Source: a virus. Taken from it: DNA of 64,000 nucleotides. Below the pieces are notes generated by a model that searched no databases, was not told where the DNA came from, and worked only from the letters and a program-made list of their open reading frames with translations. The position numbers and the translations under genes were made by a program. Shown here piece by piece: positions 4,285 to 36,905 of the stretch (position 1 is its first letter; the number at the start of each line of letters is the position of its first letter). The DNA lies in IMG/VR virus record IMGVR_UViG_3300045988_109366, positions 1 through 64,000 of that record. One strand, written 5' to 3'.

Positions 4285-4752
4285 ATGAAAACAAAGTCAT
4301 TTAAAATACTTGATCAGTACTTTCTCCGATTTTATAGATCTATTATGTCTAAGAACGGTAAGAGAAGGAAACATACGATCGTGGACAAGAATGATATTCT
4401 CGAATGTCAGTCCTTGATATGGAAGGTCATACGTGATAAGTATCTGGAGAATGAGGGTGGAGTTTATATAAACAACATCGGCTATCTATGCCATAAGATC
4501 AATCCCAATCGTAAGATATATCTAAATAAGCTTACTGGTACTATTAACAGACGTGGGACGGGTGGATATTCTTATGTCCATACGTGTATTGATTTCATGC
4601 CAAGGAACAGGTATTTCCATCTCTATATTTCTCCTGCGTTAAACAAGGAGTGCAGACTGGCTATGGAGTCTGGAAGGAGATATAAGTTCTTGTACAGGGA
4701 AGTTGAATCGGAGAGTAAGGTATTTGGAGTTAAATGGGTTTACAAACTGTAG
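4285..4752 (+). CDS. Hypothetical protein (155 aa)
   Basis: ATG immediately after the IS right end. ORF ends at TAG and is followed by a terminator hairpin. Confidence 0.6.
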   Translation: MKTKSFKILDQYFLRFYRSIMSKNGKRRKHTIVDKNDILECQSLIWKVIRDKYLENEGGVYINNIGYLCHKINPNRKIYLNKLTGTINRRGTGGYSYVHTCIDFMPRNRYFHLYISPALNKECRLAMESGRRYKFLYREVESESKVFGVKWVYKL

Positions 4753-4765
4753 AAGTTTTTGTGAT

Positions 4766-4801
4766 CCAGTTAGCCCGTGAGGGTAGACTGGATTTTTTTT
4801 G
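4766..4801 (+). terminator. Intrinsic terminator with cGTGAg tetraloop and T9 run
   Basis: Hairpin ccagttagccc-gtga-gggtagactgg followed by ttttttttt. Confidence 0.7.
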
Positions 4802-4820
4802 TATCACGGATTCAAATACA

Positions 4821-4828
4821 TATCTTTG
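4821..4828 (+). promoter_or_regulatory. Bacteroidota-type -7 promoter box TATCTTTG
   Basis: Matches TAnnTTTG, 16 nt upstream of ATG 4845. Confidence 0.55.
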
Positions 4829-4844
4829 TGCAAAAGACTTAAAT

Positions 4845-5729
4845 ATGACGATAAAGGGCTTATTGGCCGAGATCAAGGCCGATTTACATAAATACGATGA
4901 TAGCGGGGCTATAGATACCTCATCTGTTTATAGGTGGGCTGAGATCGCCTTGAAAAGGTTCGGGGGTGTTATAGCCGTCATGTCCGAGGCGGTTGTCAAG
5001 ACCAGCAACAAACAGGCGGTATTGCCTTCTGATTTTTTCGACATGCTTGACGCCTATAGGTGTGAGCCTCTTGTCTGTGAGATTCCGGGCGGCGACAAGG
5101 CTAAGGCTGACCTCCAACACGAGATCGGCTGGGTCGAGCGCACCGAGCGTGGGTTTCGTTGGAACTCCTGCACCGAGTGCTGTAAGGAGGAGTTTGAGAA
5201 GACGATCACGGAGAAGATATATATCGGGTCTCACGAGGTTCGCTTCCATTACCATCATCCCGTAAGGTTATCGATAGGTCGTGGGTTGAGGCGTGATTGC
5301 GCCGCTGACAAGTATCGGGATAAGTACGATTGGGATAATTATGATATAACTATATCCGGCAATACTATGTATACAGGGTTTGATGGATTTATTTATATCA
5401 TATATCGTGCTACACCTAAGGATGATGACGGTCTCCCATATATACCTGAAACGGCGTTAGGATACCTTGAGGATTATGTCGAGACGTATATCAAGATGAA
5501 GATCTTCGAGAATGCCGCCGTGAATGGCTTGATACAAGGCGCTGGTGACGCTTATAAATTATATGCTCAGCAGGAGCCGGGTAAGTTCGCTAGGGCTATG
5601 AAGGAGCTTAAGATGTCGATGATCACGTTAAATGATTATCGGGAGTTGGCTGAGGATAATAGGAGAAGGATGTTGTCTTATGAGCGGATGTGGCCTAATG
5701 CTTTTGATAAGTATATCAAATTGGTTTAG
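4845..5729 (+). CDS. Hypothetical virion-module protein (294 aa; start moved to the ATG after the promoter box)
   Basis: In frame with track ORF 4734-5729. A terminator plus TATCTTTG box lie between 4766 and 4828. Confidence 0.65.
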   Translation: MTIKGLLAEIKADLHKYDDSGAIDTSSVYRWAEIALKRFGGVIAVMSEAVVKTSNKQAVLPSDFFDMLDAYRCEPLVCEIPGGDKAKADLQHEIGWVERTERGFRWNSCTECCKEEFEKTITEKIYIGSHEVRFHYHHPVRLSIGRGLRRDCAADKYRDKYDWDNYDITISGNTMYTGFDGFIYIIYRATPKDDDGLPYIPETALGYLEDYVETYIKMKIFENAAVNGLIQGAGDAYKLYAQQEPGKFARAMKELKMSMITLNDYRELAEDNRRRMLSYERMWPNAFDKYIKLV

Positions 5730-5801
5730 TTGTGGGGGAGGGAATCGAACCCTCGATCTTTAGGTTATGAGCCTAATGAGATACCTCTTCTCCACCCCGC
5801 G
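5730..5801 (-). tRNA. tRNA with anticodon CAU (Met, or Ile2 if lysidinylated); no encoded CCA
   Basis: Manual cloverleaf: D stem GAGA/TCTC, anticodon stem TTAGG/CCTAA, loop CTCATAA, T arm GAGGG-TTCGATT-CCCTC, U8/A14/GG present. The acceptor stem has C1.A72 and C3.A70 mismatches. Confidence 0.75.
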
Positions 5802-5843
5802 ATTATGATGCGAATATACGTTTTTAAAAAGAAAAAAGATAAT

Positions 5844-6572
5844 ATGGCAAAGAAAAATGATTGGATACATTTAGACAAGACAAGTGGTACTGGTCCTGCT
5901 GGGGTTAAGGTTACCGCTGATATCAATGAGACTGGTGAGATACGTCAGGTAACGTATAAGGTTATAAAAGAGGGAACCAAGGAGGAGAAGACGTTCGTGT
6001 GCAGGCAGGAGTCCGTCCCGGTGGTGATCATCCCGGAGTTCGATTACCTTGTGCTTAGGTATATCTGGGCTGACGAGGACGGCATTGACTTTGACACGGC
6101 TACCGGTTTCGATAACACCGGCCTCCCGGACGTGGACGGCAAGCTGGTTGGTTGGAGTAAACAGTCCCAGACCGCGCAGGAGCGGGTAGGTGATTATCTT
6201 ATCCACGGTGGTGATAACATGGAATCAGGTAATGAGGCCGCCTTGATCCAGATGGGGCCGTTGTTGGATGGCGATAATTATGATAAATTACCTCTTGAGA
6301 TCAGGTGTAGTATATACGGTAACTGGTATGGTGGTCGTGAGAAAGGTAATGTCACTATCAGGTTCACGGCATATAAGGGCGGTTCTATGGAGAAACGTGG
6401 ATATGATTTTGTCAATATCGGAGGCGAGGAGGTTTATACCGGTGATACCCCTACCAACGTATCCGCCCATGGTGAGGATAATTGGCAAAATATAAAGACC
6501 TTGTATTCTAAGGTAGGCACGATGATCTACAACAAGGAGTCTCGTGACTGTATTGTAAGAATAGGTGAGTAA
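5844..6572 (+). CDS. Protein with N-terminal BACON-like Ig module (SGTGPAGVKVTADINETGEIRQVTYKV)
   Basis: ATG 5844 is in frame with track ORF 5730-6572. The upstream part of that ORF overlaps the tRNA. Confidence 0.6.
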   Translation: MAKKNDWIHLDKTSGTGPAGVKVTADINETGEIRQVTYKVIKEGTKEEKTFVCRQESVPVVIIPEFDYLVLRYIWADEDGIDFDTATGFDNTGLPDVDGKLVGWSKQSQTAQERVGDYLIHGGDNMESGNEAALIQMGPLLDGDNYDKLPLEIRCSIYGNWYGGREKGNVTIRFTAYKGGSMEKRGYDFVNIGGEEVYTGDTPTNVSAHGEDNWQNIKTLYSKVGTMIYNKESRDCIVRIGE

Positions 6573-13977: not shown

Positions 13978-14142
13978 ATGGAAGATTTTATTGGTAAGTA
14001 CGATGGTAATCAAATAGACAGCAGGCTTGATAAGGTCAAGGATATGGTTGGTGCCACGGCGTCCGGGGCTGGCGCTGCGGGATTGGTGCCGGCTCCCGCC
14101 GCGGAGAAGCGTACAGCCTTTCTTCGTGGTGACGGCACATGA
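13978..14142 (+). CDS. N-terminal part of a fibre-like protein (MEDFIGKYDGNQID...AGLVPAPAAEKRTAFLRGDGT), ends at in-frame TGA 14140-14142
   Basis: N-terminus is paralogous to the fibre at 35271 (MEDFQGKYNGKQIE). The TGA falls where the GDGTW motif needs Trp. Same frame as 14173-14928. Confidence 0.6.
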   Translation: MEDFIGKYDGNQIDSRLDKVKDMVGATASGAGAAGLVPAPAAEKRTAFLRGDGT

Positions 14143-14172
14143 CAGGATATAGATGTTCATGAGCCGGGCTTC

Positions 14173-14928
14173 TTGGGCGATAATCTCGATAGCGAGGATG
14201 ATTTTAGAACTATATTATTTAATTTGGGCTTTGATAAGGAATTTACCCTTACCAAAGCGAAATATGATATAATAGCTTCTAAATGTGAGGTTGATATACC
14301 AATTCAATATCTTTTATCCGGAGCATCATCGACGTATGGGGTTGGGGACTTGATATTAATTAAGGATTCATCCGGGAATATTCAAGCCATGTTGCGCTCT
14401 GGATGCAATACGGGAGCTGGGGTCATTGTATCTTATCATGTAATGATCAATATATCCAGCGACCTTACCCATACGTCCATTGTCACCAGTCATACCGTAC
14501 AATCGGTATCTAACCAAACCAAGGACATATCCTTAACGATTGGTGGTGACCCAGTCGGAGATAACAGGGGCATCAACTTCTCTACGGCCGGTACAGGGAC
14601 CAAGGCTTTGATGGATGATGGGACTTATAAGGAGATAGGTTCTTCTGGAGTGGATATCTCAAGTTATATTTTAGAAGGAATTGATTTTAAGAAAAATACT
14701 ACCAAGGAAGGTTTCGATAAGATAAAAAGCTGTATTATTAATAAACAGCATATGTATGTGTATTATAAAGTCGAAATGGGTGGCGATGTAGCCGCTTCTA
14801 CAAGTGATGTTATAACTAATTTTTTGTATGGTAATATATCCTTGGTTATGGTTGATTTTTCGAATATTGAGTTGAAACAAGTAGTAATAAATTCGAGTGA
14901 TTATAATATAACCGTAACAAAAATTTAA
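14173..14928 (+). CDS. Distal part of the same fibre-like protein (no ATG; contiguous in frame with 13978-14142 across one TGA)
   Basis: The track ORF begins at TTG. No stop other than TGA 14140 lies between 13978 and 14928. Confidence 0.6.
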   Translation: MGDNLDSEDDFRTILFNLGFDKEFTLTKAKYDIIASKCEVDIPIQYLLSGASSTYGVGDLILIKDSSGNIQAMLRSGCNTGAGVIVSYHVMINISSDLTHTSIVTSHTVQSVSNQTKDISLTIGGDPVGDNRGINFSTAGTGTKALMDDGTYKEIGSSGVDISSYILEGIDFKKNTTKEGFDKIKSCIINKQHMYVYYKVEMGGDVAASTSDVITNFLYGNISLVMVDFSNIELKQVVINSSDYNITVTKI

Positions 14929-31222: not shown

Positions 31223-33460
31223 ATGGGTAGATCTTGTTATGTTATAAAAAATAAGGAGGGTGGGGTAGATAATGTCCTTGCCCCGAACGACCAACCATCC
31301 GGATTATACCAAAGGGCGATGGAGGTGCTTGGCGACCAGAAGCAGGCCTTATCGGTCTGGGGTACGGCCTACTCCCCCGACTTCGTGTCTTTCTTTGGCG
31401 ATTGGATGTCCATGCCATCAGAATACGGCTTAGATAGCAATGGGGAGCCTAGGTATGATGATGTCATGTCCTTTATCAAACAAAAGAATTATGCTGTGGG
31501 TAATTTCATGGCTGACGAGGTTAAGGATATCAATAATACCATTACTTCCCTGGGCGTTGATAATATCAATGATCTTAATGATATGATCGTATCTAACTTC
31601 CTTTCCGGCGGTGATATATTCATCAACAGATATAATCTTGAACGATCCGGGATGTATGATGCTGATGAGATTGATAATATCATGACTAACCGATTGGAGT
31701 ATGAGCGGGTAAGGGATATGATGAGGAGGATTGTCGATTTTATGTCTGAGGGGGATCTCAATGAGAAGGATACATATTTCTTGTCCTCCGAATCAGGCCT
31801 TGGTGATGATTATATGATATATGAGGATGTGTATGATTCATTGGGAAAGAGAAGGGTCTTGAATCCAATGGAGGTAAGGGATACGATCATGAGGGCGGTA
31901 GGCGGTATCAGCGACCGCCGGGAGTTCGATCAGGCTTTCGCCTCCGTTCCCTACCCTTCCTTGGCGCTCCGGTATCAGGAGGATCAGGATTACGCAGATC
32001 GGATGTATGACACGTATCGTAATATGACCCGTATGGAGGTTAGGAATCAGGATGGAAATACGATTACCGACTCACACTATTACAATACCATACCATATAT
32101 CAGTATGCCTAAGGATATGAAAGGTCTAAGGGATAAGGTTGGGGAGATAATCGATATGGATGATTTTAAGGACATCAAGGACGTTGCCGGACGTCTATAT
32201 GACATAGCCATGGATCTTTCCGATATGGGCGTTGATATAAGCGAGGCGATTAGCGATGAGATGGTTATATCTAGGCCGGAGGATATCCGTGACCTTATGG
32301 CGTCGCTGGATGTCATGTTATCTTCTATACAGAATGGTGATCCGGTATATGATGACTTTATTTCCGATCTTGATAGGATAACAGGGAAAGGGAATCCGAT
32401 ATATGAGGTTCAGGATACTTACTTTACCGGGGATAGGATGGGGTATGTAAGGTCCGGGAAAACATCTCCTTCCGATATGTATGACAGGAACATGTTGTAT
32501 GTAGGTAGAAATACATACCATAACACGACCCCGATAACCGACACCGATCAGGCCTATGAGGTGCTGGCTGATATCGGGATAGCCCAGCCCTCGTACTTAC
32601 CGACAGGCGTGGTTCCCCAAGGGGCTTCTCGATCTGATATTGGCGTGGTCAAGGATAATATCAAGAAGTTGGTTATGGATAACATCTCATCCTCGAATAC
32701 CGAGAACATGATCCTTACCAGATTGATATACCAGCATCCCGTAACCCCTAAGATGGATGATATCGATATTGATCGGGAGTTCAGGAGATACGAGGCTAGA
32801 CAGGGAAAGGATCGGGATTTTATCAAATCCTGTACCTCGTTGAGGAAGACCCAGATCAAGGAAAGGTTAAAAAAATCGGATTTGTATAATAATGTCTTAC
32901 GTTTCCTTGATTTTAATGGATTTTATAACGTATCTTTGAACCACCATGACAGAGGTACGTTAAAAAACATAGAGATATCGTTGCCGGATGGTCAGGTAAG
33001 GGATCTTCTGTTTGACGTGGCTATCGAGTCCGGTGACAGTAGCATGAGAAACCTTTTCTATCTGGATAGTCAGGACAGGATGATGGATGTCGGGTTTTAC
33101 AGGTATCTGTACCAAAGGAATCCGGGCCTGCTCCGGGAGGTCAACGGCGGCGTCGAGGCGAGACCGGACGGCTTGTTCTTGGCTCGTGGGAGGTATGATG
33201 ATTTCGTGTCATTCCAATCCGGTTTATATGAGAAGGTAGGTGAGACGGTTAATGGCGGGATATATAGCTTCGTGGATAATTTTATATATTCGGACCCATC
33301 ATCATATCAGGATAGTATGGTACGAAAGATAGGTGACGTTACGGTAAGAAGTGACGATAACCGTCTATCAAGGGTAGAGGATAATCCCTCATCCAGTAAG
33401 ATAATTAATGAATACACTGCTAATACAAATAAGTTGATGCGAGATTTTTCGTGTAATTAA
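31223..33460 (+). CDS. Large virion protein (745 aa); N-terminal module shared with the 2148-aa protein
   Basis: CYVIKNKEGGVDNVLAPNDQPSGLY...FGDW parallels CVIKRNSKGKITRVLTPSGEVSTLF...FGDW at 40710. Confidence 0.85.
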   Translation: MGRSCYVIKNKEGGVDNVLAPNDQPSGLYQRAMEVLGDQKQALSVWGTAYSPDFVSFFGDWMSMPSEYGLDSNGEPRYDDVMSFIKQKNYAVGNFMADEVKDINNTITSLGVDNINDLNDMIVSNFLSGGDIFINRYNLERSGMYDADEIDNIMTNRLEYERVRDMMRRIVDFMSEGDLNEKDTYFLSSESGLGDDYMIYEDVYDSLGKRRVLNPMEVRDTIMRAVGGISDRREFDQAFASVPYPSLALRYQEDQDYADRMYDTYRNMTRMEVRNQDGNTITDSHYYNTIPYISMPKDMKGLRDKVGEIIDMDDFKDIKDVAGRLYDIAMDLSDMGVDISEAISDEMVISRPEDIRDLMASLDVMLSSIQNGDPVYDDFISDLDRITGKGNPIYEVQDTYFTGDRMGYVRSGKTSPSDMYDRNMLYVGRNTYHNTTPITDTDQAYEVLADIGIAQPSYLPTGVVPQGASRSDIGVVKDNIKKLVMDNISSSNTENMILTRLIYQHPVTPKMDDIDIDREFRRYEARQGKDRDFIKSCTSLRKTQIKERLKKSDLYNNVLRFLDFNGFYNVSLNHHDRGTLKNIEISLPDGQVRDLLFDVAIESGDSSMRNLFYLDSQDRMMDVGFYRYLYQRNPGLLREVNGGVEARPDGLFLARGRYDDFVSFQSGLYEKVGETVNGGIYSFVDNFIYSDPSSYQDSMVRKIGDVTVRSDDNRLSRVEDNPSSSKIINEYTANTNKLMRDFSCN

Positions 33461-33650
33461 TCTCTCTTTGACGTCGTGAGACGTTTTCTTTCGAGCATTG
33501 AAACATTGAATTTATAGATTTGCATGAATCCGGGCCGTAGTGATACGTTCCGGATTTTTTTGTCTTGTACCGGTTCTTATTAATACCAATTGCATGACAT
33601 GACGTGCCTTGATGGTGACATATATCACGATCCCAGGATTATTAATTTTT

Positions 33651-33658
33651 GAACTTTG
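33651..33658 (+). promoter_or_regulatory. Near-consensus -7 box GAACTTTG
   Basis: One mismatch to TAnnTTTG. GAACTTTGTAACG resembles the box at 31197. Followed by the hairpin cccgcc-atca-ggtggg. Confidence 0.3.
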
Positions 33659-33707
33659 TAACGCCCGCCATCAGGTGGGGTTATTATTAATTCAAAAATA
33701 AATAGAC

Positions 33708-34241
33708 ATGGGTACAAGTGGAGACAAAATCGTGCTGTTAGACGGCATGGGTTCCGGTAGTGGAAGCGCCACTAACGGTTTATTATCTATGATTCCGGGT
33801 ATGTTTACCAGCCTTTTGGGTGGAAATAAGATGGATCCGAACTTGGTAGCGGCTTTGATGAACGGTCGTAACAACCAAGACCAGTTCGGAGGAGCCAACG
33901 GCTGGTGGTTATGGATCATCGTCCTGTTCTGGTTATGGGGTGGCCGTGGACGTAGCAGACGTTCGGATGGGACTTACATGGGTTATGGTGGTGGAATATA
34001 TGACCATTATGGCAAGGAGCATGACGGTAGGATGGATGAGCTAGAACGCCGTGAGCGTGATCTTGAAAGACGTGAGAGGGAACTGGAACGTGACGAGCGC
34101 GAGCTTGAGAAACGTGAGAGACTCCATGAACGTGAGGACGAGATGTATCGCAGGGGATGGTTCGGTGAGCGTAACATCCGTGACGAGTACGAAGGTACCG
34201 AACCGTATATGCGCAGGGGACGCAGGAGTCGTTACTACTGA
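33708..34241 (+). CDS. Membrane protein with Gly-rich N-terminus, one TM segment (WWLWIIVLFWLWGG) and Glu/Arg repeat; ends at TGA 34239-34241
   Basis: 177-aa ORF. RERDLERRERELERDERELEKRER repeat. The same frame continues open after the TGA into 34335-34628. Confidence 0.7.
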   Translation: MGTSGDKIVLLDGMGSGSGSATNGLLSMIPGMFTSLLGGNKMDPNLVAALMNGRNNQDQFGGANGWWLWIIVLFWLWGGRGRSRRSDGTYMGYGGGIYDHYGKEHDGRMDELERRERDLERRERELERDERELEKRERLHEREDEMYRRGWFGERNIRDEYEGTEPYMRRGRRSRYY

Positions 34242-34334
34242 GGAGCAGACGCCGATGACCCGGATTATAAGCGGTATATAGACACCCATGGATATCACTT
34301 TTCCAAGGAGCTGGCTAGGGAAGCCGCTGACAAG

Positions 34335-34628
34335 ATGCTTAACGCCGACGGATCCAAGAGAAGATGGACGATGGAGGACGCTAAGCAGATGTTCGATAAA
34401 TGCGGGGCTAAGAAACCTGATAACGCTACGTGGGGAGATATCCAATATCTGTTCGCTATGTTCTATAGCGACTACTTTCCTAAGGTATTGGATTGCGACC
34501 AGAAAATAGTCAAGGCTGTCTTGGCTTATCTGGAAGACCCTGACGCCCCGGAAGGGACGGCGTTCGTAAGGTATCTGGCGGTGCGGTGCTTCGTCGGTGA
34601 CACAATCAAATGGAGTGATATGATTTAG
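34335..34628 (+). CDS. Conserved phage domain protein as called from the first ATG; frame is open from 34242
   Basis: 97-aa ORF in the same frame as 33708-34241. The 31 codons upstream (GADADDPDYKRYIDTHGYHFSKELAREAADK) read as coding and contain no ATG/GTG/TTG. Confidence 0.65.
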   Translation: MLNADGSKRRWTMEDAKQMFDKCGAKKPDNATWGDIQYLFAMFYSDYFPKVLDCDQKIVKAVLAYLEDPDAPEGTAFVRYLAVRCFVGDTIKWSDMI

Positions 34629-34646
34629 GTTTGATACAACGTTGGA

Positions 34647-34686
34647 GAACCCTGTCGGCAATAGAATACCGATAGGGTTTCTTTTT
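34647..34686 (+). terminator. Intrinsic terminator
   Basis: gaaccctgtcgg / ccgatagggtttc stem, then T5. Confidence 0.65.
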
Positions 34687-34706
34687 GACCGTAGCTTTAT
34701 TATGAT

Positions 34707-34714
34707 TACATTTG
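34707..34714 (+). promoter_or_regulatory. -7 promoter box TACATTTG
   Basis: Matches TAnnTTTG, about 150 nt upstream of ATG 34863. Confidence 0.4.
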
Positions 34715-34756
34715 TTCGAGGTAGATCTTTTTGTCATGGTAGGGTGGGCGGGAATG

Positions 34757-34826
34757 AAAAAAAGGATATCCTCACGGACACCCTTCCCCTTGGTTGAAAA
34801 TCACTTAAAACATTATGAGTTACTAC
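34757..34826 (-). ncRNA. Candidate about 70-nt small RNA, antisense to the 5' leader of gene 34863
   Basis: Minus-strand TATATTTGCGGTGT promoter box (34834-34841), then the terminator ggtgtcc-GTGA-ggatatcc plus T7 (plus coordinates 34757-34782). No ORF. Confidence 0.3.
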
Positions 34827-34833
34827 TACACCG

Positions 34834-34841
34834 CAAATATA
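34834..34841 (-). promoter_or_regulatory. Minus-strand -7 promoter box TATATTTG (extended TTTGCGGTGT)
   Basis: Reverse complement of caaatata. The extended motif is identical to the boxes at 29290 and 30040. Confidence 0.4.
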
Positions 34842-34862
34842 GATAAATAAACGTGAATAGCA

Positions 34863-35192
34863 ATGGGTAAGGGGTATTATTGGATAGAACCTGTGGATCG
34901 GACGTTAAATGATTTTCAGTTTTATAAGGCTCGTATCGTGGGTGATCCTGAATATGACGAGAAGCATCATCGTGTTATATTAAGGACGGATAAGTATTTC
35001 CCGGTAGGAAGTATCTTCCATGTCCTTAATGATCCGGAGATGTTCGTTATAGAGAGGAAATTTAAGACATGGGGGAATAAGTATGTCATTAAGCCTTGTG
35101 AAGGTGAATGGGAATGGGAGTCTGTCCAGAAACTTAAAGACAAGGCTATTATATTCCGTAGCGGATTCCTGCACGGGGATGGTGGTTTCTAA
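34863..35192 (+). CDS. Hypothetical protein (109 aa)
   Basis: ATG..TAA ORF. Confidence 0.6.
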   Translation: MGKGYYWIEPVDRTLNDFQFYKARIVGDPEYDEKHHRVILRTDKYFPVGSIFHVLNDPEMFVIERKFKTWGNKYVIKPCEGEWEWESVQKLKDKAIIFRSGFLHGDGGF

Positions 35193-35244
35193 CACTTACC
35201 CGTATCTCCCCACCCCTCGATTTCTTGGTATTTATGTATATAAC

Positions 35245-35252
35245 TATATTTG
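35245..35252 (+). promoter_or_regulatory. -7 promoter box TATATTTG
   Basis: 18 nt upstream of ATG 35271. It overlaps the TTG start used by the track. Confidence 0.5.
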
Positions 35253-35270
35253 AGCAAAAATAATTATGAT

Positions 35271-36905
35271 ATGGAAGATTTTCAAGGTAAATACAATGGT
35301 AAGCAGATAGAGCAGCTTTTGGATAAGGCTAATGATATTGATCTTTCCAAATACGCTCTTAAGACGGATAACGCTCCTACCGCCACAAAATTACAGGCAG
35401 CTAGGACTATAGTGCTGTCCGGGGCTGTTAGCGGTAGTGTCTCATCGGACTTTGGAAGTAATGTTACTATCTCCACGACATTGTCGAACTTCGACGCCTC
35501 TAAGATCGCGTCCGGAACCATCAGCATAGATAGGTTACCTAAGGCGGCTTTGGAGAGATTGATCGTGGTAGCTGATGATACGGCAAGGTTTAAACTTACT
35601 ACAGCCACGGCTCAGGTCGGGGACACGGTTAAGGTAACGGCCACGAATAAGATGTATCTGGTCAAGGATGATAGTAAGTTGAATACCGAGGATGGTTACG
35701 AGCCTTATACGGCAAGTTCGGCGTCATCTGTGCCATGGTCTGGAGTGACCGGCAAACCTAGCACCTTCGCTCCACCTACGGCGGCGGCCTCCACCTTAGG
35801 TGGCGTAAAGGTAGGATACACGACTTCTGGCAAGAACTATAAGTTACAGGTTGACGCTTCTGGTAACGCTTTTGTTAATGTTCCATGGACAGATAATAAT
35901 ACGACCTATAATCAGGCCACGGCTGACACTTTAGGATTGGTTAAGATCGGTTATACCTCTAGTGGGAAGAACTATGCCGTATCCTTGGATGCTAATGGTA
36001 AGATGTATGTGAATGTCCCTTGGACTGACAATAACACGACTTACACCCAAGCCACGAGCGATAAATTGGGTCTTGTTAAGATCGGGTATTCGGCTAACGG
36101 AAAGAATTACCCGGTAGCTCTTGACGGAAATGGTAAGATGTATGTGAACGTTCCGTGGACGGACACCAACACCACATATTCCAATATGGGGGCGGCGACC
36201 TCCTCGGCTGCGGGAAAGGCCGGCTTGGTCCCCGCACCTGCCGCCGGAGCGCAAGCCAAGTATCTTCGTGGTGATGGAACATGGCAAACCCCTCCTAATA
36301 CCACATATAGCAACATGGGTGGAGCGACGTCCTCAGCCGCAGGATCGGCGGGATTGGTACCCGCTCCGGCTGCCGGCAAGCAAACCTCTTTCCTTCGTGG
36401 TGATGGCACATGGGTCGTGCCTACCAATACCACGTACGGGTTGGCCTCCACTTCCGCCAACGGCTTATTGAGACAGCTTAATGGTAGCACCTCTAATTTT
36501 ATGCGTGGAGATGGTACATGGGCTACCCCTCCTAACACGACATATGCCGTGGCCAACGAATCCACTAATGGATTGATGGCGGCCGCCGATAAGAAGACCA
36601 TGAACAGGCTTATAGGGGTTAATACGGTCACGACATTAGCCAGCTTACCTATCTCTAAAAGAAGCATCACGGCCACGCTATCAGCGGCTACCACCCTATC
36701 CGTGGCGTCAGGTATGCAGATAGGAGAGGAGCTGATGATCAGGTGTGTCCCGTCTGCGGTCTTTACTCAAGCCATACCAAATTCAGGAGCTTATGTAAGC
36801 ATGAGTGGTACTTCTATAACCACTACGGCTAACAAGCCTTTCGAGATAAATATCTGGTGTTACGCTTCAGGCAAGTATAGCATCGCTGTTAAAGAACAAG
36901 ATTAA
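35271..36905 (+). CDS. Tail fibre protein with tandem repeats and AGLVPAPAAG..(F/Y)LRGDGTW motifs
   Basis: Start set at MEDFQGKYNGKQIE, paralogous to 13978. Three about 45-aa repeats (LGLVKIGY..GKNY..VNVPWTD.NTTY) plus three GDGTW units. Confidence 0.85.
   Translation: MEDFQGKYNGKQIEQLLDKANDIDLSKYALKTDNAPTATKLQAARTIVLSGAVSGSVSSDFGSNVTISTTLSNFDASKIASGTISIDRLPKAALERLIVVADDTARFKLTTATAQVGDTVKVTATNKMYLVKDDSKLNTEDGYEPYTASSASSVPWSGVTGKPSTFAPPTAAASTLGGVKVGYTTSGKNYKLQVDASGNAFVNVPWTDNNTTYNQATADTLGLVKIGYTSSGKNYAVSLDANGKMYVNVPWTDNNTTYTQATSDKLGLVKIGYSANGKNYPVALDGNGKMYVNVPWTDTNTTYSNMGAATSSAAGKAGLVPAPAAGAQAKYLRGDGTWQTPPNTTYSNMGGATSSAAGSAGLVPAPAAGKQTSFLRGDGTWVVPTNTTYGLASTSANGLLRQLNGSTSNFMRGDGTWATPPNTTYAVANESTNGLMAAADKKTMNRLIGVNTVTTLASLPISKRSITATLSAATTLSVASGMQIGEELMIRCVPSAVFTQAIPNSGAYVSMSGTSITTTANKPFEINIWCYASGKYSIAVKEQD
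35790..36545 (+). repeat. In-frame tandem repeat region of the fibre gene (3 x about 45 aa, then 3 x about 38-40 aa)
   Basis: Protein-level periodicity. Nucleotide copies are diverged at synonymous sites. Confidence 0.8.

Follow-up and report, generated by a model that had tools for sequence, protein, structure and literature searches.

A conserved in-frame TGA inside a DUF7841 gene of crAss-like Epsilon gut phages: a probable site of stop-codon read-through

We analyzed a stretch of 64,000 nucleotides (nt) from the IMG/VR virus record IMGVR_UViG_3300045988_109366 (positions 1 to 64,000; hereafter, the window) and focused on plus-strand positions 33708-34628, where two open reading frames (ORFs) lie in one frame on either side of a single TGA. 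The upstream segment (33708..34238) starts at ATG 33708 and comprises 177 sense codons. It contains a hydrophobic stretch (WWLWIIVLFWLW, nt 33903-33938, amino acids (aa) 66-77), an RG-rich linker (within 33708..34238) and a Glu/Arg repeat (about aa 108-149, nt 34029-34154), and it ends in ..YMRRGRRSRYY, an Arg-rich tail with a terminal Tyr-Tyr. The TGA that follows (34239-34241, context TAC TGA GGA GCA GAC GC) is the codon for which we propose read-through (recoding). Beyond it, the frame continues through a spacer of 31 sense codons (GADADDPDYKRYIDTHGYHFSKELAREAADK, 34242..34334), corresponding to the N-terminal helices of a DUF7841 domain, and into the rest of that domain (34335..34628), with 97 codons from Met 34335, the start that standard gene callers pick. 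The true terminal stop of the gene is the TAG at 34626-34628. Altogether, 128 codons follow the TGA in frame, and the full-length product here would have 306 aa.

The first-pass annotation of the window had placed these ORFs and the open frame between them at the correct coordinates, and had proposed that one gene is read across the TGA. It had also observed that the spacer lacks ATG, GTG and TTG, which we confirmed for the window (0 of them in 34242-34334), and had cautioned that 31 stop-free codons could arise by chance at a level of 10-20 %; at this composition, we computed a probability of 0.15. Thus, the open frame alone is no proof, and comparative evidence is needed. With that evidence, together with structural predictions and selection patterns, the proposal of a single gene is now well supported.

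The window is part of a gut phage of ~150-160 kb from the crAss-like Epsilon group. Yutin et al. predicted Parabacteroides as the host of this group, and the Epsilon rows of their table are translated with code 11 (PMC7886860). The sole annotated relative is phage csAssE-Sib (OR575929.1, 151 kb), which carries muzzle, ring, portal and capsid genes, and whose GenBank annotation splits the locus into two coding sequences (CDSs) of 125 aa and 97 aa. Contigs with this locus number in the hundreds in IMG/VR and ENA (140-160 kb each), among them Epsilon metagenome-assembled genomes (cMAGs) of Yutin et al.

Downstream of the TGA, the codons of this frame are translated, and the DUF7841 fold requires them. 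With the spacer included, the downstream part matched Pfam DUF7841 (PF25223) over profile positions 7-113 of 114 with 66.3 bits (cut-off 25.2); starting from Met 34335 only, the match covered positions 28-113 with 41.3 bits. When we searched 1.8 billion representative proteins with phmmer, distant homologues (27-43 % identity) aligned from spacer residues 3-11, and a start at the Met was seen only in code-11 calls of close relatives. The first-pass annotation had suspected a domain start upstream of this Met and had suggested a profile search of the post-TGA translation, which places that start where it expected. The AlphaFold model of 34242-34625 reached a predicted local distance difference test (pLDDT) of 96.5, with values of 87-98 for the spacer residues, which form helices at residues 2-5, 7-16 and 22-30.

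The substitution patterns agree with these results. Between the window and csAssE-Sib, the spacer differs by 6, 5 and 20 substitutions at the three codon positions, with a proportion of synonymous differences (pS) of 0.82 and of nonsynonymous differences (pN) of 0.20. Between the main lineages, the spacer shows a pN of 0.17-0.25 vs. a pS of 0.81-0.93, a pattern that equals the rest of the domain (spacer and domain together, pN 0.15-0.26 vs. pS 0.68-0.94), and a close pair of loci (L116 and L164) gave a pN of 0.15 vs. a pS of 0.45 in the spacer. Overall, pN/pS downstream of the TGA is about 0.25. The first two codons after the TGA already vary synonymously between lineages (GGA/GGG and GCA/GCG), so translation proceeds from the stop onward and the conserved item is the peptide rather than an RNA signal. 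The reading frame is kept in every locus examined, with no frameshift or second stop among the tabulated complete loci.

We searched the spacer for signals of independent expression. Across the four lineages there was no conserved ATG, GTG, TTG or near-cognate start, and the csAssE-Sib spacer had no start codon at all, not even a near-cognate one; in one locus (L253), spacer codon 13 is a GTG, which a gene caller picked as a start. A consensus scan of 34242-34334 found no promoter-like or terminator-like site; the first-pass annotation had named a promoter here as evidence for separate genes.

DUF7841 corresponds to PHROG 38431 and is widespread among crAss-like phages. The fold predicted for the post-TGA region matched BFVD models of DUF7841 proteins from many of these phages, with template-modelling (TM) scores up to 0.91. 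No fold match was found in the PDB, and no match in NCBIfam or among the defence systems of PADLOC. We found no literature on DUF7841, on csAssE-Sib or on read-through in Epsilon phages. In a distant phage (L255 2832-4139), the DUF7841 gene is flanked by a holin-like gene on one side and a gene for an Amidase_2 endolysin on the other, with an ATGA overlap, and this gene order suggests a link of DUF7841 to the lysis module. The family-typical N-terminus of that gene (MGRIKYLLVR..) is out of frame beside an A-run, and this frame break probably reflects an indel in one contig of low coverage.

Related genomes without the stop indicate what the uninterrupted gene looks like. Two outgroup loci carry a syntenic, uninterrupted ORF: one of 268 aa (L171/P0126), in which the TGG of 'DKYWGFD' aligns with 'RYY*GAD' of the window, and one of 212 aa (L172/P0125). 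Within the species of the window, the TGA site holds a sense codon in two loci, TGG in L001 and CGA in L002. The TGG and CGA variants, together with the uninterrupted outgroups, point to the long form as the ancestral and functional form. In the DUF7841 family, the usual layout is a short N-terminus, followed by a charged low-complexity linker and then by DUF7841. In the model of a natural full-length variant (P0001), the ER repeat forms one long helix (H82-125, pLDDT 89-96), and the residue equivalent to the TGA, W155, lies in a block with a pLDDT of 61 (residues 151-160), beside a segment below 50 (144-153). The model thus places the TGA in a flexible linker at the boundary of the DUF7841 domain. 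We also considered this Trp as a buried essential residue and rejected it, given its position in the low-confidence linker of the P0001 model. Since, besides, an [FY]-W motif is present in only some of the distant DUF7841 homologues, the identity of the residue inserted at the TGA is probably not critical.

The comparison of related genomes, which the first-pass annotation had recommended, also revealed how constant the stop is. TGA occupies the site in 359/361 related loci from four lineages: in all 112 IMG/VR contigs of the window species (exact-flank search), in 118/118 contigs of the csAssE-Sib species, in every one of 120 metagenome contigs retrieved with a degenerate pattern that allowed any codon at the site, and in the P0030-type (L164-169) and P0121-type (L253/254) lineages. 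Four-fold degenerate sites differ by 78-83 % between the main lineages, which is saturation, and so the three bases of the TGA were not all kept by default inheritance. TAA or TAG was never seen at the internal site. The terminal stop of the same gene, on the other hand, varies within the species (TAG in 80, TGA in 20 and TAA in 4) and is TGA, TAA and TGA in the other three lineages. We take this difference between an invariable internal stop and a variable terminal one as evidence for the maintenance of a leaky stop. Altogether, the comparison indicates that the TGA at 34239 is kept by selection.

Two database proteins (P0004 and P0030, loci L164-L170) show a 'W' at the site and were tried as sense variants. 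We rejected them because their TGA had been translated with code 4 on short contigs, and we counted them as further TGA cases; the code-4 call of P0004 also runs through the real terminal TGA ('MIWFDTT..'). Such entries are easily confused with sense-codon homologues.

Since TGA is a reassigned codon in other crAss-like phages, we looked for signs of a code change. ARAGORN and Rfam identified six tRNAs in csAssE-Sib (Cys-GCA, Arg-CCT, Gln-TTG, Met-CAT, Tyr-GTA and Lys-TTT), and no suppressor tRNA (anticodon UCA) in its complete genome. The same searches found none in the 64-kb window, outside of which lie ~90 kb of the genome, and none was present in 24 population contigs. These contigs carry a tRNA cluster like that of csAssE-Sib, with all four tRNAs in 22 of them and tRNA-Met missing in two. 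In the source data of Yutin et al., a suppressor is listed for 0/36 gut Epsilon genomes (PMC7886860), and one of those genomes (OHYE01000011) carries a locus of the window type with the TGA. Moreover, this site is the only one in the late genes of csAssE-Sib where an in-frame TGA on the coding strand connects two long open segments.

The use of TGA as a terminator was also informative. In csAssE-Sib, it ends 26/82 late genes and 34/107 early genes (32 % each), and in the window it ends many genes, including some with ATGA start/stop overlaps. The window has fewer TGA terminators on the plus strand (late genes, 4/27) than on the minus strand (early genes, 13/26; p = 0.008), and we had considered this late-gene avoidance as evidence, but dropped it because the bias was not replicated in csAssE-Sib. 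Judged from these genomes, TGA is not reassigned genome-wide.

Among the tRNAs of csAssE-Sib, the tRNA-Cys(GCA) (L115 6667-6738, minus strand) has a C33 (anticodon loop CCGCAAA) at a position where U33 is almost invariant. It is near-cognate to UGA. In the table of Yutin et al., tRNA-Cys(GCA) is near-universal in Epsilon genomes (PMC7886860).

A second in-frame TGA of the window (14140-14142, context TGA-C) lies within 'FLRGDGT*Q' of a plus-strand tail-fibre-like gene (13978-14928). The first-pass annotation had regarded both sites as the same phenomenon, and the comparison separates them: the position equivalent to 14140 is TGG in 46/46 related contigs, which makes this TGA private, whereas the one at 34239 is the norm in four lineages. 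A paralogue (35250-36905) contains 'LRGDGTW' three times, and the tail-fibre-like gene itself is variable, with a downstream part of 261 or 423 codons depending on the contig. The TGA at 14140 is probably a private TGG-to-TGA nonsense allele, possibly leaky.

The upstream part of the gene has a different history in the window than in most relatives. In about 96 % of them, it encodes a soluble, highly charged protein of 121-122 aa (MRVIDLGGGH..RYY), and the 177-aa form of the window is also present in two other contigs. The first ~80 codons of this form come from a neighbouring Q/N/C-rich gene of 335 aa, annotated as 'spike protein' in csAssE-Sib. Compared with L002, a deletion of 1,825 bp removed three genes and joined the start of the 335-aa gene to the charged-repeat gene. 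In BLASTN, window 33009-33949 corresponds to L002 7301-8242 and window 33939-35216 to L002 10067-11343, with an overlap of ~11 bp at GGRG that marks the deletion junction (33939..33949, plus strand). The hydrophobic stretch belongs to the part grafted from the 335-aa gene. The description of the product as membrane-anchored in the first-pass annotation thus reflects this graft, and the upstream part of most relatives is soluble.

More generally, the region (window 33500-34700; L002 8001-10756) is a hot spot of in-frame deletion-fusions. The junctions are many, and the N-terminal partners include the neighbouring 335-aa, 138-aa and 177-aa proteins and a Bro-N/antirepressor-like protein. Fusions onto DUF7841 were found in P0005-P0014, P0023 (on 25 contigs), P0025, P0122 and P0123, and the domain stays in frame in all the fusion variants found by DUF7841 homology. 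Some of them may be assembly chimeras rather than real variants. In some relatives, a gene for TnpB / IS605 OrfB (Cas12f-like; L001 1910-3052 and L253 32-1234, both minus strand) lies upstream of the DUF7841 gene block, about 280 bp from the DUF7841 gene in L001 and about 2.8 kb from it, with four genes between, in L253. This gene may be linked to the rearrangements at the locus.

Other features of the window can be reported briefly. Just 3' of the gene, inspection of the sequence suggests a terminator-like hairpin on the plus strand (34650..34686; CCCTGTCGG..CCGATAGGG, followed by TTTCTTTTT), which was not picked up by the consensus terminator scan (stem mismatch, long loop). Far upstream, a minus-strand tRNA-Met(CAT) gene (5729-5801) lies between two plus-strand ORFs of a common frame, 4734-5729, which ends in TAG, and 5730-6572. 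The TTG listed as the start of the second ORF overlaps the tRNA, and therefore its real start is probably further downstream.

Taking these results together, we suggest that 33708-34628 is probably a single late gene with one conserved, site-specific UGA that is read through. The mechanism we infer is partial, with Trp inserted at the UGA and two products made. Most ribosomes would terminate at the UGA, yielding the charged N-terminal protein (of 177 aa in the window and of 121-122 aa in most relatives), and a fraction would decode it and continue for 128 codons to yield the 306-aa isoform with a complete DUF7841. The likeliest decoder would be the host tRNA-Trp(CCA), a near-cognate competing with release factor 2 (RF2), and the short product would be the major one and the extended product the minor one. 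Bacterial UGA is known as a leaky stop read as Trp (PMC7918605). If the long form is ancestral and functional, the stop would tune its amount or add a short isoform, acting as a fixed-ratio or attenuating switch and not as a gene boundary.

Several observations weigh against this proposal. We found no RNA structure after the TGA that could stimulate read-through: the single-sequence fold gave z = 0.01, and the consensus fold of the four lineages (-7.95 kcal/mol) had little covariation and no conserved nucleotide signal. The base at +4 after the TGA is a G, which is not the leakiest UGA context in E. coli work. Besides, the sense codons of the variants and outgroups imply that the short isoform is dispensable in at least some backgrounds, and the absence of a suppressor is, taken alone, weak evidence. 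As to the missing structure, a stimulatory element is not obligatory for UGA leakage in bacteria. A weak GAGGAG:CUUYUC pairing was also tried as an RNA element and set aside, as it is explained by the conserved His-Phe-Ser codons.

Instead of passive leakage, the phage could alter UGA decoding during infection in a regulated switch, with the tRNA-Cys(GCA) with its unusual C33 or an interference with RF2 as possible routes. We consider this unlikely; if true, the Epsilon group would stand at the 'ambiguous intermediate', the first step of a TGA reassignment that is complete in sister crAss-like groups. An equally doubtful reading is a code switch of the late phase, in which TGA would encode Trp throughout the late genes (code-4-like), owing to a suppressor of the phage or the host or to another factor. 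Such late-gene TGA-to-Trp reassignment is documented in Crassvirales (PMC7886860), and many recoded phages have no detectable suppressor (PMC10136315), so the missing tRNA would not be decisive. The window even seems to agree, with another in-frame TGA in place of a Trp codon (14140) and the scarcity of TGA terminators in its late genes, but neither trait extends to the relatives: the conserved site is single, none of the 46 related contigs shares the TGA at 14140, and in csAssE-Sib no further such TGA occurs and late and early genes end in TGA equally often. TGA also acts as a stop in the ATGA start/stop overlaps, and the Epsilon group has neither a suppressor, in csAssE-Sib or in the 36 gut genomes, nor an assignment other than code 11 in the rows of Yutin et al. 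(PMC7886860).

A conventional reading with two genes is similarly improbable. The TGA would be a normal terminator, and DUF7841 would be made by termination-reinitiation or from a start of its own, either Met 34335 or a non-canonical codon in the spacer, in line with standard gene callers, with the two CDSs of csAssE-Sib in GenBank and with the GTG at spacer codon 13 of L253. A product starting at the Met, however, would lose three helices of the domain according to the AlphaFold model, purifying selection acts on the protein from the first codon after the TGA, no start is conserved, and the orthologues in the outgroups are single ORFs, with the frame kept throughout. That the TGA is a nonsense mutation in a decaying pseudogene, whose downstream part is no longer expressed, is very unlikely. 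A single substitution separates it from the TGG or CGA of the variants, and the locus is prone to deletions. Nevertheless, a decaying gene does not fit a TGA kept in four lineages with saturated synonymous divergence, a downstream part that is still under constraint and free of frameshifts and second stops in the tabulated complete loci, and fusion-variant deletions that keep DUF7841 in frame. The pseudogene reading is thus effectively refuted for 34239, and the private TGA at 14140 is best read as a nonsense mutation. Least credible are selenocysteine insertion and translational bypassing (hopping) over the stop. UGA is the selenocysteine codon, but the fold tests found no conserved structure 3' of the UGA or one resembling a selenocysteine insertion sequence (SECIS), and at the site the homologues carry Trp or Arg rather than Cys. 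For bypassing, the stop is preceded by a Tyr codon, with a further one nine codons downstream; the protein-level selection on the codons right after the TGA means that these codons are not skipped.

In this gene, a group of gut phages that is very abundant and was scored as 'standard code' retains a single opal codon through saturating divergence. At the annotation level, two 'hypothetical proteins' become one gene with a full DUF7841 domain; for this gene, public protein sets contain both truncated calls and artefacts of code 4. The locus is also a clean natural substrate to measure UGA leakage in Bacteroidota and offers a plausible stepping stone between the standard-code and the TGA-recoded crAss-like phages. 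If the read-through is only trivial background leakage, the finding shrinks to an annotation fix.

Two-isoform stop-codon read-through is textbook knowledge for small RNA viruses. To our knowledge, hardly any such case is well documented for bacteria or large dsDNA phages, and in-frame stops in Crassvirales have so far been interpreted as whole-genome code changes. With regard to the Pfam DUF7841 family, the post-TGA region of the window is a full-length member, and we found no description of a member interrupted by a stop codon, unlike the gene studied here.

Among the closest known systems are other crAss-like and gut phages with reassigned stops, in which TGA encodes Trp and TAG encodes Gln (Yutin et al. 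2021, PMC7886860; reviewed in PMC10136315). The phage order, the codon, the likely amino acid and the location in a late gene are the same. In the groups Beta, Delta and Zeta, however, reassignment involves numerous codons spread over numerous late genes, is often accompanied by suppressor tRNAs, and leaves the codon without its use as a terminator there (PMC7886860, PMC10136315), whereas here there is one conserved site, no suppressor, and about a third of the late genes end in TGA. Conserved in-frame stops of prokaryotes have been interpreted as read-through by Belinky et al. 2021, who reported, as found here, purifying selection on both sides of the stop, with TGA as a leaky codon read as Trp (PMC7918605). 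Their survey dealt with close bacterial relatives (synonymous divergence, dS, of about 0.003-0.004) with frequent reversals (PMC7918605), while our case is a phage gene at saturated divergence.

In viruses, two known systems resemble this locus. Phage Q-beta, a single-stranded RNA (ssRNA) phage of E. coli, makes its minor capsid protein A1 by leaky UGA read-through of the coat gene, at a few per cent. In both cases, a single in-frame UGA separates the shorter major product from its C-terminal extension and two isoforms come from one cistron, with decoding by the host tRNA-Trp without a dedicated suppressor (as proposed here) and a stop kept by selection. They differ in that read-through was measured in Q-beta, whereas that of the window is predicted, and in that the phage of the window is a ~155-kb dsDNA crAss-like phage of Bacteroidota; besides, the extension here is a discrete globular domain, and natural sense-codon variants exist. 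In alphaviruses, some strains have an Arg codon (CGA) in place of the opal codon between nsP3 and nsP4. This in-frame opal codon is conserved, marks the boundary of a domain and is kept by selection (PMC13274604), traits that it shares with the TGA described here, along with the occasional natural variants that have a sense codon. The differences are that the virus is a eukaryotic RNA virus, that the release factor is eukaryotic and that the stimulatory context is known. By analogy, the read-through logic proposed for the DUF7841 gene of Epsilon phages would be of the same kind as that of the Q-beta coat/A1 gene and of the alphavirus opal codon.

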